A stretch of 64,000 bases of DNA, taken from NCBI RefSeq assembly GCF_041248615.1, contig NZ_CP158425.1. One strand, written 5' to 3'. A program made the position numbers. This document shows, piece by piece, positions 15,001-21,000 of this stretch. The DNA comes from Escherichia coli. GTDB lineage: Bacteria; Pseudomonadota; Gammaproteobacteria; Enterobacterales; Enterobacteriaceae. Every line of letters starts with the position of its first letter. The first letter of the stretch is position 1.

Positions 15001-18000
15001 TAGTTTCCGTATTTCTTTCGATAACAATGACGAACGGTGTGATCTTGTAAAGAAGAATGCCCGTATGCTTGGTTGTTATCTTTTGCCTTATTTCGTCGAT
15101 TTGACACGCACGGTGGGCGCATTCATTAATTTGCCAGGTAGTGTCTCTTTTAAACAAGTACAGCGCATCAAACCCCAGATTCATCCAGAAACAACACATA
15201 GTCATATAGTTACTATTGAGGACTCTCCCTTTCTTTCTCGGTTAAAATTTAAAATCATTACTGCCATAGATCGGCTTCCTGACCCTAATGGCCTTTATAC
15301 AAACACCTTTAACAGCATTATTGACCGTGCACTGCTGACTCATCTCAAAACCGAACAGGAAAAAATAGATAGTCCAAGAGTCTGCAAAAATGTGATTTCG
15401 GCTTTTGCCGACTCAACTCTTTCTCTGCCGGTGTTTAACATCGGCCTAAACGAGCAGTACAGATACTGGACGCCGTGGGGCATCAACTTTATAGAATTTT
15501 CCCGCCAGGCCGCAAAAGCAAGGACCGCTGTATTTGTTCCTGATGTGGGACAGATCGAGTGGAAAAGCGCAGAGCATAAAGAACTGGCGGAGTTAAGCCT
15601 CATCGACCAAATCATACCTAAACAGTACCACTGGCTCCTGGGTATCCCGACGATGTGGCGTAACAACTATTGCAATCACGATCAGAGGCTAGCTCTTTTT
15701 CGTGAATGGAGGGAAAGCAATGGCTGCGGATAATACAAGCAGAGCAGCAGTGCTCAGAACAATGCTTTTTTTTGGCATGGTCATTTATTTTGGTTACAGC
15801 CTGGCTTTCCAGAATACTGAGGAGCTCAAATATCAGATTACTCAGGAGGTTAATGCAAGCCGGTCCATCATATCAAATGACCGTTGGAAGTCTGTTATTG
15901 CAAATAGTGAAGCGACTTTAAATTGGTTGGTACATGACTATAAGTTAATTGACTATCTGAATACTATTCTGATCCCTGACACCAAAAAACCAGCCAGAGG
16001 TATTAACATTGTTGCTGAAAAATTTACCTCTATTAATTACACTATGGCCAAAAACATACCCCTCTTACTTTATCAGTCCATTTTCCGGTGGAACTTAATC
16101 CTGGGGTGGCTAATCGTTTTTCTGCCCTATCTATTTGCCATGCTAGCAGATGGAATGTACCAGTGGAAATTGAAGAGGTACGTATTTGGTAAGGTTACAG
16201 TTCAGTTTTATCGTATTTGGTTTCGAGCATTTTGGGTGATCAGTGCTTTAACGATGGTCTACCTGGTCATGCCGAATATGTCACTATTTAACAATATCGC
16301 TCAACTTTTCCCACCAGTCGCTTTATTGATACTGGGAATTGCATTGAATCGCTTGTGGTCTAACTTTCAAAAACTCATGTAAAGGTGGTCAGATGTTAAG
16401 CAGTAAAAAAAGGAAGTCCCCTACAAATATCAAAGAATCGCTCAATGATAACGCTGACCGTTTTTATAAGATGTTTCGCATTCATACCACGGCAAAAGTT
16501 GCTATGTCGCTAATTGCCATGACCGCTGTAGGGTTTTCTTTCTACAATCTTTACGAACAATGGCAGGACGCTGAAGGGAAGAAAGACCATATAGCTGTAA
16601 TACGGATTTCTGGCGAGATGGGTACCGGCTCGGAAACGGGCGATGGAACAGTGATCGCAACAGCTCTTGCCAAAGCTTACAATAATCCCCATGCCAAAGC
16701 AGTTATTATCGAGGCAGAGTCAGGTGGTGGTGGTCCCTCTGACGCCATCATTATTTACCGCCAGATAAACGCGCTTAAAAACCACCAGCCACAGATTGAA
16801 CGCGTATCAGATGCCGGTTGCTCTCTTTCATCTGTAGCCGCTGACAAGAGTAACAAAACCGGGAGCACAGAACGTGGCGATGAAGCACGGTCGAAGCAAA
16901 ACTCCCTCGAAGTACTCTCCAGCGGTACCGGTCGTTTTTTCTCTGATATCGCAGACTCATATAAACCAATCATCGTTAGTGTGAAAGGCATATGCGCATC
17001 CGCATGCTATTACGCGGTATCGCCCGCTGATGCAATTTATGCCGACAGTAATGCCCTGATCGGTTCTATCGGTGTGCGTATGGACCACTGGAATCTGTCA
17101 GAGATCATGAGCACAGTAGGCGTCAAGAATGAGCCCCTTACGGCCGGTGAGTTCAAAGATGCTCTTGACCCCTTCCACCCATTGTCCGATTCAACGAGGG
17201 AGTTCATGCAGAAGGAGATCCTGAACACGATGCATGAAAAATTTATAACTGATGTTGAACTTGGACGGGGTAAAAAGCTTCTCTCGCGTCATGATGCCGA
17301 TGCTGTTTCTCTCTATTCAGGCCGTGTATGGCCAACACCTCAGGCAGTTAAGTACGGCCTGGTGGATGGAGATCTTACGTCAGTAGAGATCCGTACACGT
17401 CTTTCAAAAATGTACTCCACTGACACGTTCAAAAACTACAATGAGCCTCATCGTAATCTCCGTTCTGCACTCGGCATGCTGATGAGCCTGTCTTCAAATA
17501 TTGAGAGCCTTACCGGTACCACTACCCGCTTGGTAGAATCTGTTAATGCCACCAGCTACCCCTCTGTGAGGTAACATGGATGCTTTCAATCTGCTGTGGA
17601 GCATTACGGGGGTAGCTTTCATTATCCTTATTTTCGTCGTGTTGCTGTGTCTGTTGGGTTTTATGACCTCTGCCATAGCGGAACGGCGGACTGCAAAGGC
17701 AATTGAATCTGGGCTTCCTGAAGAAGCTCAGGGGCTACTTAGTGATCTCACCTTTCAGTTGTCGGCTCATAGCACTACTCAGGTTGATCACATTCTCGTA
17801 GCCCCACATGGTATATACGTCATAGAGCAGAAAAACTACGTAGGCAAGCTCTACGGTACTCTGGAGGAAAGCCACTGGCGGAAATGGACTCAGTCCCGAA
17901 CCCTCAAGTTGCAGAACCCGTTTAAGCAAAACCAGGGGCACATCAGGGCTATTCAGTCTGCTCTTAAGGCTAGAGAACTGGAATGTATCAATGTCGTCAT

Positions 18001-21000
18001 CATAAACGGACGTTGTAAGTTTGATGGCATCAAGCCGGAATGGTTATGTATGGGGATGGACGATTTTATCCATAAAGTCAAACAACGACGAGGGCTACGG
18101 TTGTTCACACCGGAGTCTGTTCAGCACATCTGTTCGGTGTTGAAGTCAACAAGGAAGTCGCCAGGGCTCTATACGGACCTTACTCATATTCACAACATAA
18201 CGACAAAGTACAAAGCCCCGATGAAATTCGAGCAACGAGTAACATACATTCTGCTCAACTTTATCCATTATCTGTGGGCAAGTCTGTTCACTAAGCAGAA
18301 GCCTTAGCGCTCTATCATTGGTAAGGCTGTAAAATGTCTGCAAAAGGCCCCATCGGTAAATTGTTGGGGCTTTTTCTTTGCGTAGTTCTGATACGGTTTA
18401 TCCTGTGGAGCATTATGGCCACCAGCCAGCTGGTGACTGGCCAACGCTTTGTATGACGTAGCCTACTCAGGGCAGGCTATTTTAGAGGGACCGATTTTTA
18501 TCCGGGCTAATTTAGAAAGAGATAATTTGAACTTAGGCGGGCTGACCACCAGCAGAGAGGTAAATCACTAGCCGGTGATATTGACAGAAGTCGTCAGGGG
18601 TTTAACGCCGGAATATTTTGCCAGGCCTCCTGCAAGGTCTGCAAGACTTCTACAAGTGATAGTGACGGCCACAGGACTGTTTCCGTCATTATCACTCCAG
18701 GTGGCTCGCACTCTACTGGTACCAGAATTAAAACAACACGAGTTCCTTTTACCTGGTAGGCAAGGTTTACTGCCGGTTGGCGGTAGGAGGCCAGTACACC
18801 CTCACCATATTGAGCAGGGTTACTTGCCCAGTTCCGCACCATTGCATACACCTGAGGCATATACCGACTATCCAGATCCCCTTTGGGCCGTCTGAACGGC
18901 ACGATTTCTTCTGAGCGGTAGGTGGTCGTTGTTGTATTGGTTGTCATCTTTGTCACCTCCCCTGTTCGTCCATTTAGAGTTTTAAGCTGCTTTACACATC
19001 ACACTCAACTGATTATTTAAGCTGGTCATCGTCTCTGGCCAGCATAGCCCAACCATTCGACTGGTTTTCGCGGGAGTAAGGATTCATTTCAAAATAACTA
19101 TCTACCGCGTCGCTGTCCGCAACAGAACTGTTGTTAGCTCTCTTTGAACCCTGAACCACTACAGCATCAACCTCTGCGGCTTTCCCGTTGCGCTGTACCA
19201 GGATTTTAACCGTCTTGGGCTTACGTCTTGCGAGCAGTTTGTTGGCGATAAAAAGCACAACAATCCAGGCCAAAAGCACGTATAAAAATTTATTCATAAT
19301 GCCCTCCTTTGTATGTGATTATTATACCTGCTTCCATTGCAGGCCAAACAGGTTCGGTGTATGAAAAATAGACTTCTCTCCGGCGTATAGCAATCTACTT
19401 ACTGATCTGTTTTCGTATCAAACTGTATGGCATAACCGAGGGGCGTACGTGGTGAGTCAGAAAGTTACTTTTCCGTAATAGTTAATTTCAGATCCTTCTT
19501 CCAGTTACGCTTCAGTATAAAACCGATACCCTCTAATTCAGCATCCTTCACGTTTAATACGCTTCACTTTAAGGCAGGGCTTTTCGGTTGATATGAATTC
19601 TTTTTCCGGTTGCTGGACATGGGTTTCATCCTGATAGTTAAAATTGCAGGCTATCAGTCACCACCACCACCTCCTCCTCCTCCTCCTCCACCGCCACCAT
19701 CACAACCACCAGCTATGCTATTTTCACCATTACAATCACCTCCGAGGGGGTTCAAATGGCTGCTCCCCTGTAGATGGTGTCCTTGCCAGATCGAACCCGA
19801 ACCAGCGCCTCCTGAGCGTCTTTGCTTGCCCTGAGGCAATTGTGCAGGCTCACCAGCACCGGCGGTCCCAAAAATGTCCCGGGCAATTTTATAAAGAAGG
19901 TAAAAAGGTACGCCCAGCATCATAAAAAAGATTACTGAAAATATTACACGTTCCATTGATGATCTCCTGTCTTGTGAGAGACCAGTTATATCAGGGTGAT
20001 TCAGTATTTCCGTTTAGAAAAGAGTACTAATTTGGCCCTGTTCGATCTTAATTTGCCATCCGGGAAAAAGTCATAGGGATAGGCCTGCCAGAGTCAATAA
20101 CTTCCAGTGATCTGGAGGAGACCCCGGCTCTCTGAGCCCTCATGGATGGTACGGCTTTACCCCCTGTAAACAGATTCACGTTCCGCAGGACAAACATCGA
20201 CTACTGACGTCTCATATTTGCTGACGCTAATCCGACGTCTCATTGCCGTCTGCTTGTTTTCTTTAAAGGGTGTATTAGACGAATATCAAATCGGAATGGT
20301 AGGGGATGTGTGGGCACCATGCCCGGCCCTCTTTGAGCATCTGAGAGATTGGAGACCTAGCCGGGTAAGATAGCTACTTTCTTACGGGTTACCCTTCAAA
20401 TCCAAAGACGAAACGGACGCTGCCGTTCTCCACGTGGAGACGCTTTACTTCTTCGACAAATTCCTGGATCACCTCTCCGGCGTTATCGGGTGGTATGGCT
20501 GACAAAATTTCTTCCGAAGTCAGCCATGAGTATGAATGTTCACCGAATAAATCATCATCTTCGGACGGTATATCATCAGGTAATCCGCGTAATGCGTGGA
20601 TAAAAACTGCTGATGTGCTCGCCCTTTCACGATCTACATCAAATCCGAGCCAGGCAAAGTGGAGATATGATCGGTCCCCTTTATAATTGCTTGATAAATT
20701 AATCCATTTACCAGGCTTTTCTTCCCTTTGAAATCGCCAGCAGATATCAACGCCCATTAAGAAACTCCATTACTATCGTTCGTATGAGATAACTATCATT
20801 TCAGAATACTATGACTTCTTCCCGTATAGAACTAATCGCTCACGCCAACTGGGCGAAGCCAACCGGTTCCGCCACTTCGCTCATTGGTTTTTAGGCGTAA
20901 GCACTGAAGCCAGTCTCCATGCTAACTGGCGAGCCTGCGAAAGTCAGACTCGTTGTTATAAAGCGGCATATCGTAAGCGGTGTCTGAAATGAACATGCGG

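Follow-up and report, generated by a model that had tools for sequence, protein, structure and literature searches.

The 64,000-nucleotide stretch of Escherichia coli DNA analysed here (contig NZ_CP158425.1 of assembly GCF_041248615.1, hereafter the window) belongs to an IncHI2 resistance plasmid, as judged from matches to sequenced plasmids and from typing, and the genes described here lie in its transfer region Tra1. The final two cistrons of its mobI/traH-mobH/traI-traD/traG-dtrJ/traJ operon encode an S49 (SppA-like, single-domain) peptidase of 393 residues (16393–17574, plus strand) and a membrane-anchored protein of 243 residues with a NERD (PD-(D/E)xK-type) nuclease domain (17576–18307, plus strand), which are orthologues of R0116 and R0115 of the IncHI1 plasmid R27, respectively. 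We propose, with about even confidence, that these proteins provide separate accessory functions of the IncHI 'H' operon at opposite faces of the inner membrane, the first clearing leader peptides and the second acting as a membrane nuclease.

The S49 peptidase

Residues 188–338 of the S49 protein match the Pfam family Peptidase_S49 (PF01343; E 2.9e-28, 99.2 bits against a cutoff of 24.9), and no S26 or S24 family match was found in Pfam or NCBIfam, in agreement with the original prediction, made from the DNA alone, that this enzyme is not of the usual S26 pilin-maturation type. The NCBIfam model TIGR00705 gave 96 bits and its cutoff of 311 was not reached. In alignments to solved structures, Ser203 coincides with S147 of Bacillus subtilis SppA and S409 of E. 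coli SppA, and Lys255 with K199 of the B. subtilis enzyme (alanine in the crystallised mutants) and K209 of the E. coli enzyme. Both residues are invariant among 19 homologues of the plasmid clade, down to 29% identity, as part of a set that comprises C201-A-S203-A-C205, K255, GSIGVRM (224–230), S110, G112, G113 and P115.

The AlphaFold (AF2) model of the protein (pLDDT 79) found B. subtilis SppA as its best Foldseek match (4kwb/3rst, E 5e-18, TM-score 0.84–0.88), followed by E. coli SppA, with ClpP far behind (E ~1e-7). Like the 36K-type B. subtilis enzyme (3RST/4KWB), the plasmid protein has one S49 domain, a catalytic dyad spaced by 52 residues (S203/K255 versus S147/K199) and one putative N-terminal membrane helix. 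It differs in sequence (~21% identity), in carrying an insert of 58 residues before the catalytic strand, in having CASAC in place of AASGG, in scoring below the equivalog cutoff of TIGR00706 and in being encoded in a plasmid transfer operon, whereas B. subtilis SppA is a housekeeping enzyme. Taken together, the alignments suggest a catalytically intact, plasmid-borne short (36K-type) SppA, and we regard the protein as a predicted protease.

The insertion near the active site, initially estimated at ~65 residues, spans residues ~131–188 when compared with B. subtilis SppA and with plasmid homologues of 310–330 residues, and ends 15 residues before Ser203. It is disordered in the model at 132–155 and then forms a helix (156–177). 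This insert occurs only in IncHI-type members (378–400 residues), in which its sequence is poorly conserved; Motilimonas has part of it, and the members of 310–330 residues lack it. The cysteines on either side of the catalytic serine (C-A-S-A-C, residues 201–205, encoded at 16993–17007) are invariant in the MOBH-linked clade and are also found in protein P0047, which is not MOBH-linked, while the corresponding positions read AASGG in canonical SppA and GASGG in the IncC protein. In a periplasmic enzyme such cysteines could form a disulfide or a redox switch.

The topologies of the S49 and NERD proteins were deduced from charge, hydropathy and analogy to SppA and SmdA. The S49 protein begins with 35 residues of which nine are Lys/Arg (versus three acidic), followed by a moderately hydrophobic segment (~36–54) that lies within a predicted helix (13–61) and is less hydrophobic than the helix of the NERD protein. 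This pattern points to a cytoplasmic N-terminus, one membrane helix and a periplasmic catalytic domain, in which case the substrates accessible to the enzyme would be pilin leaders, exported Tra proteins and periplasmic loops. Processing of a relaxosome component, one of the roles initially put forward, is unlikely because relaxosome proteins are cytoplasmic, on the other side of the membrane from the predicted location of the catalytic domain.

We also considered the possibility that the S49 gene is the remnant of a phage head-maturation protease of the lambda gpC type, as the profile PHROG 53 ('head maturation protease') matches the protein with an E value of 5e-33 and the two share a Pfam family. 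Such an origin appears extremely improbable and a prohead protease identity is disfavoured, given the predicted N-terminal membrane anchor, the best structural matches to SppA, a tree position beside housekeeping sppA genes (see below) and a locus with no phage neighbours.

The NERD protein

Residues 33–142 of the second protein match the NERD family (PF08378; E 1.1e-21, 77.8 bits against a cutoff of 22.1), so that both domain assignments of the original prediction lie above the curated cutoffs in a hidden Markov model search. Its membrane anchor, also predicted, is a helix at residues 8–32 with Kyte-Doolittle values up to 3.1, with an acidic, uncharged-to-negative stretch (MD...) on its N-terminal side and ERRTAK on its C-terminal side. 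Because of these flanking charges, the NERD domain is predicted to be cytoplasmic and the N-terminus to lie outside.

An exhaustive profile search gathered relatives in 4,734 representative clusters (945 at E <= 1e-10), most of them 200–260 residues long and aligned over residues ~10–212, which places the protein in a very large family of small NERD proteins with a membrane anchor. Across 50 relatives D71, E84, K86, G90, W101, N114, P115, Q118 and H122 are invariant and E36 is at least 90% conserved, from which we place the putative catalytic core at E36/D71/E84-x-K86, with Q118 and H122, and predict a nuclease. PDB sequence searches with the single sequence and with a profile returned no match; a fold search assigned the protein a restriction-endonuclease-like fold resembling the Can2, Shedu and McrC defence nucleases. 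The conserved residues and the fold speak in favour of a catalytically active, membrane-bound nuclease.

The two NERD proteins with a reported nuclease function, ZwsA and TbLrRP2, both act on RNA. ZwsA, described in a 2026 preprint, is an RNA endonuclease that defends Pseudomonas aeruginosa against pilus-dependent single-stranded RNA phages, needs its tetrad for this function and cuts PP7 and MS2 RNA in vitro. TbLrRP2 is a trypanosome protein with a transmembrane helix and a NERD domain which functions in rRNA cleavage/processing and has its helix at the opposite end from that of the window protein. The architecture of the window protein is also that of SmdA, a morphology factor of Staphylococcus aureus with a membrane helix and a NERD domain reported to be cytoplasmic; SmdA functions in staphylococcal division and, unlike the plasmid protein, has a degenerate NERD domain that lacks several of the conserved residues. 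None of the three is linked to plasmid transfer, unlike the NERD protein of the window.

These comparisons bear on the idea that the NERD protein is a safeguard of the cell that carries the plasmid: an RNase or DNase on the cytoplasmic side of the membrane, close to the transfer apparatus, directed against H-pilus phage RNA or the DNA of competing elements. The protein shares the E..D..ExK tetrad with ZwsA (E535/D567/E580/K582), the trypanosome protein of similar composition acts on RNA, the fold resembles those of the defence nucleases named above, NERD N-termini are present in PglW and MADS6, and the gene is a lineage-specific one at the operon 3' end whose R27 orthologue is expressed at both temperatures examined. 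However, PADLOC found no full defence system, its hits being partial and confined to the N-terminal ~80–145 residues of PglW and MkoA (E 1e-5 to 1e-6), and ZwsA itself is a large, multidomain, soluble protein rather than one with a transmembrane helix and a NERD domain. H-pilus RNA phages have been isolated on IncHI hosts, so any such protection would be incomplete, which counts against a role as phage guard. Overall we consider this protective function unlikely.

The NERD gene is found 3' of the S49 gene only in plasmids of the IncHI1, IncHI2 and IncHI3 types. An element of Photorhabdus heterorhabditis carries an S49 gene whose product is 55% identical but no NERD gene, the NERD genes of other plasmids stand alone, and the genomic contexts of two distant relatives with a transmembrane helix were uninformative. 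Orthologues from IncHI1 and IncHI3-type plasmids are 63% and 32% identical, respectively, so that the NERD protein evolves about as fast as the relaxase. This distribution suggests a late, lineage-specific addition of the NERD gene to the 3' end of the operon, in the IncHI1/2/3 lineage only.

Operon context and expression

The dtrJ and S49 genes are separated by 10 nucleotides, and the S49 gene has the ribosome-binding site GGTGG. A single base lies between the TAA stop of the S49 gene (17572–17574) and the ATG of the NERD gene (17576), whose ribosome-binding site GAGG lies within the 3' end of the S49 gene. A Rho-independent terminator-like hairpin followed by a T-run is located 3' of the NERD stop codon (18339–18382, plus strand), with a folding energy of -18.2 kcal/mol (z -3.5; none of 200 shuffled sequences was as good); it was missed by a consensus scan, as its loop is longer than 8 nucleotides. 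These junctions and the terminator fit co-transcription with the relaxase and coupling protein genes, as do the R27 orthologues, which are co-derepressed with those genes and listed in the H operon (PMC7366339). The operon membership originally claimed for the S49 and NERD genes is therefore well founded.

The supplement to the R27 transcriptome study (PMC7366339) gives '(H), peptidase' for R0116 and '(H)' for R0115. When htdA was mutated, transcripts of R0116 rose 4.7-fold and those of R0115 5.6-fold at 25 °C, alongside traJ (7.3-fold), R0118 (8.6-fold), traG (9.2-fold), traI (11.0-fold) and R0121 (7.7-fold), and the next gene, R0114, showed no rise (PMC7366339). In wild-type R27, transcription of R0115–R0118, including traJ, was equal at 25 and 37 °C, whereas traH, R0121 and the pilin gene trhA were 8–14-fold higher at 25 °C (12–14-fold for traH and trhA; PMC7366339). 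As the distal genes of the H operon are temperature-independent while traH and R0121 are lower at 37 °C, an internal temperature-independent promoter in or after traG is suggested. A consensus scan gave 20 promoter-like sites against a shuffle mean of 23.4 and pointed to no usable internal promoter. The Tra1 region of R27 is said to hold 14 open reading frames (ORFs); no published function was found for R0116 or R0115 in the papers available to us, and literature searches returned no functional study of S49, SppA or NERD proteins in connection with IncHI, IncC or conjugation.

The translationally coupled stop and start codons, and the constant adjacency of the two genes in IncHI1, IncHI2 and IncHI3 plasmids, could also point to joint action of the two proteins, with the nuclease under the control of the protease, for instance in an exclusion or abortive system. 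We find this very improbable, as the active domains are predicted to lie across the membrane from each other, S49 genes occur without a NERD gene in all non-IncHI relatives and in P. heterorhabditis, NERD relatives without S49 exist, and the S49 protein has no PADLOC match. The pair was likewise rejected as a known defence system, on PADLOC results that comprise nothing for S49 and only partial matches for NERD. Because they are predicted on opposite membrane faces, and because the NERD gene is absent from non-IncHI relatives that keep S49, the two proteins are probably not a functional pair.

The region 14500–19500 of the window matches 990 plasmids, 974 of them at >=99% identity and many at 100%, with Escherichia, Salmonella and Enterobacter as the main hosts; one of these plasmids, pSTM6-275, was typed as IncHI2A, MOBH and MPF-F. 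Insertion sequence (IS) elements of the IS66, IS21, IS3, IS30 and IS5 families are present inside this region in several natural IncHI2 plasmids (hits H1–H6 and H38, NZ_CP119741.1, are among the plasmids concerned), in one of which the match to the S49 gene is split and an IS5 family element is annotated there. S49 and NERD products that are truncated or fused also occur (proteins P0044, P0094 and P0099 are among the cases pointed to), and therefore natural knockouts of the S49/NERD locus exist.

Distribution and origin of the S49 gene

The R27 proteins R0116 and R0115 are 72% and 63% identical to those of the window and are encoded in the same order after traJ, so that the window holds the IncHI2 version of this arrangement, with no difference in kind. 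An S49 gene also lies 3' of dtrJ in IncHI1B/IncHI3-type Klebsiella plasmids (48% identity), in a Photorhabdus contig and, at 28–35% identity, in a Vibrio gigantis plasmid (28%), V. hepatarius, Motilimonas, Neiella and two metagenomic MOBH plasmids. This adjacency is kept in loci L003–L007, L009, L014–L017, L019 and L021. In three of the distant elements the gene 3' of S49 encodes a protein that matches the family of gammaproteobacterial TraA pilins (NF041281; E 1.6e-9 to 7e-13, slightly under the curated cutoff) and has a leader of 36–42 residues; this gene is followed by traL-E-K-B. A gene for an OmpA-family (peptidoglycan-binding) lipoprotein adjoins the plasmid S49 gene in two unrelated elements, downstream in Neiella (L021, 10829–11314) and upstream in a metagenomic plasmid (L008, 9476–9997).

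The suggestion that the S49 gene is not a standard Dtr component holds in that it is not found next to dtrJ across the MOBH1 elements, the arrangement being confined to IncHI-like plasmids and the Vibrio/Motilimonas-like lineage, and located elsewhere in IncC. It is not an oddity either, as S49 follows dtrJ in IncHI1, IncHI2 and IncHI3 plasmids and in distant Vibrio, Motilimonas, Neiella and metagenomic MOBH elements. In the IncC plasmid pKKp4-VIM (L002, 7365–9200) an S49 gene, sppA, lies directly upstream of a DsbA gene and distant from traI-traD. IncC/IncA plasmids, in which papers list sppA merely as a core gene, thus resemble the window in having an S49 peptidase on a MOBH, MPF-F backbone, beside an envelope-maturation gene (dsbA in IncC). 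The IncC protein differs in being only 26% identical and in its canonical GASGG motif, and its gene lies far from traI-traD-dtrJ and belongs to the chromosomal-type tree group.

A motif scan covering the genomes of 100,044 species yielded 565 S49 relatives, and we examined the gene neighbourhoods of the best 80 of the 565. Ten of these 80 have the MobH-TraD-DtrJ-S49 arrangement, and about 70 are lone S49 genes from Thiotrichales, Methylophaga, Chromatiales and allies, with the conserved housekeeping context rne-rluC-HAD-S49-maf (RNase E, RluC-like synthase, HAD hydrolase and Maf). In a neighbour-joining tree without bootstrap support, the MOBH-linked S49 proteins form one clade and the IncC sppA product falls among the chromosomal type, which suggests a second, independent recruitment. 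The simplest history compatible with these sequences would be a single capture of a short housekeeping gammaproteobacterial sppA in an ancestor of this MOBH lineage, where it came to lie between the pilin gene and the Dtr genes, with a probable separate capture of an sppA by IncA/C plasmids.

Between IncHI groups the S49 protein equals TraD and DtrJ in conservation and exceeds the relaxase: identities of the IncHI2 protein to its IncHI1 and IncHI3-type counterparts are 72% and 48%, compared with 83% and 47% for TraD and 82% and 49% for DtrJ. Amino acid identities alone are reported, and not ratios of nonsynonymous to synonymous substitution (dN/dS), because synonymous sites are saturated between the groups. 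This conservation, together with the constant adjacency to dtrJ (and to traA in distant relatives) and an altered specificity suggested by the clade-specific CASAC motif and the IncHI-specific insert, would fit an enzyme dedicated to the maturation or regulation of one specific substrate in the type IV secretion system, which is the main rival to leader clearing. Such an enzyme might trim the TrhA precursor before cyclisation or cut DtrJ, the coupling protein or an Mpf protein in a loop exposed to the periplasm, and would be a conditionally needed transfer component. According to a paper on plasmid Rts1, a further peptidase of unidentified nature, beyond LepB and TraF, is needed to mature the pilin of RP4. 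The same paper, however, has no S49 protein among its tabulated conjugation genes, and its authors knew of no conjugative element with more than one conjugation protease. Moreover, the nearest relatives of the S49 gene are housekeeping sppA genes, and the IncC sppA sits outside the transfer operons. We therefore regard a dedicated protease as rather unlikely. Known plasmid-encoded peptidases of this sort, namely RP4 TraF, R27 TrhP and Rts1 Orf215/Orf185, resemble the S49 protein in being serine/lysine peptidases in the envelope of a conjugative system, but they are S26 enzymes of a different clan and fold, and are needed for pilus formation.

Neighbouring features of the window

The operon opens with mobI/traH (8165–8650, plus strand; PF19456 MobI, E 3.5e-22, and PGAP annotation), followed by a gene for a hypothetical protein of 245 residues similar to R0121 of R27 (8647–9384, plus strand), with no Pfam match, whose position is kept in relatives. 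The third gene encodes TraI, a MobH-family relaxase (9394–12540, plus strand; NF041494 MobH, E 5.7e-76, and PF07514), and the fourth TraD/TraG, the type IV coupling protein (12540–14624, plus strand; TIGR03743 SXT_TraD, E 2.9e-203). Between the coupling protein gene and dtrJ lies a gene for a hypothetical R0118-like protein of 369 residues (14624–15733, plus strand), for which no Pfam, NCBIfam or PADLOC match was found. Most relatives have a gene of 190–370 codons in this slot, which is empty in V. hepatarius (L019). Directly 5' of the S49 gene is dtrJ/traJ (15720–16382, plus strand, PGAP coordinates), which encodes a DUF4400 DtrJ-like membrane protein (PF14348).

To the left of the operon, the minus strand encodes TrhH (TraH family) and TrhF (TraF family, thioredoxin-like). 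A divergent ORF of 266 residues (6606–7406, minus strand), without a Pfam match, is presumably the trhR or trhY regulator gene, if the gene order is that of R27. The origin of transfer (oriT) would be expected in the intergenic region between this ORF and mobI/traH (7406–8165), by analogy with R27 and IncC. Downstream of the operon, a run of ~13 CCN codons (CCA/CCT/CCG) on the plus strand at 19661–19700 is possibly a length-variable triplet tract; an ORF on the minus strand (19654–19956) is annotated as a hypothetical protein of 100 residues, and the tract encodes its C-terminal tail of 12 glycines.

Proposed roles

The S49 and NERD proteins belong to known enzyme families, of which they are ordinary representatives, and their location is unusual but can be explained. 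In the reading that we favour, the SppA domain of the S49 protein would degrade, in the periplasm, long leader peptides and other membrane-embedded fragments left by the processing of pilin and exported Tra proteins, and would in this way keep the membrane clear in any host that the plasmid enters. Such an activity would be helpful rather than essential, because hosts encode their own SppA and SohB. Leader clearing is the most economical role that we can infer, as it fits the housekeeping origin of the gene, its envelope-protein neighbours, the sppA-dsbA pair of IncC plasmids and a likely dispensability. The NERD protein, for its part, would cut nucleic acid at the cytoplasmic face of the membrane, either incoming foreign DNA or RNA, in a protective role, or a substrate associated with transfer. 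A protective or competitive role suits its late, lineage-specific addition and its temperature-independent expression better than a core transfer role.

Several points weigh against leader clearing and a membrane nuclease as the functions of this pair of genes. The S49 protein matches SppA_dom (TIGR00706) with an E value of 4e-35 and 121 bits, under the equivalog cutoff of 155; as this cutoff is missed, and as neither the 58-residue insert nor the CASAC motif is present in canonical SppA, its specificity may differ from that of SppA. The tree from which the housekeeping origin was read has no bootstrap support. The pilin operon of IncHI plasmids sits in the other transfer region, so that the adjacency of S49 and traA is limited to the distant relatives. 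The equal transcription of R0116 and R0115 at 25 and 37 °C implies that their expression is not strictly tied to pilus production. Lastly, Lawley et al. are said to have reported in 2002 that nine of the 14 Tra1 ORFs are essential. This number matches the named genes traH, traI, traG, traJ, trhR, trhY, trhF, trhH and trhG, in which case the unnamed R27 ORFs, including R0116 and R0115, would probably be dispensable in laboratory matings.

A variant of our proposal, which we consider unlikely, assigns the NERD protein more narrowly to guarding the inner membrane face against nucleic acid that enters through or alongside the pilus route, for example H-pilus phage RNA, which would offset the vulnerability to phages that the pilus brings. 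The S49 protein would then be an independent self-sufficiency function, whose place beside the genes for pilin and Dtr proteins in this plasmid lineage predates the divergence of the IncHI groups.

Implications

The S49 and NERD genes themselves are not new, because they are annotated in more than 1,000 plasmid records and their R27 orthologues are already listed in the H operon. In the literature available to us, we did not find descriptions of the dtrJ-S49(-traA) linkage across distant MOBH plasmids, of the housekeeping origin of the S49 gene with its probable double recruitment, or of the restriction of the NERD gene to IncHI plasmids.

As vehicles of mcr-1, mcr-9 and carbapenemase genes, IncHI2 plasmids are of major importance, and their transfer operon encodes two conserved, uncharacterised enzymes. 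As neither is likely to be a core conjugation function, both would be weak targets for blocking transfer. If the S49 peptidase does ease the membrane load imposed by a large F-like apparatus, the host range of the plasmid and its fitness cost would depend in part on this enzyme, and this would explain at least two acquisitions of sppA by MOBH plasmids. If the NERD protein shields donors from pilus-specific phages or competing DNA, it would represent a new kind of plasmid self-protection linked to the transfer genes.

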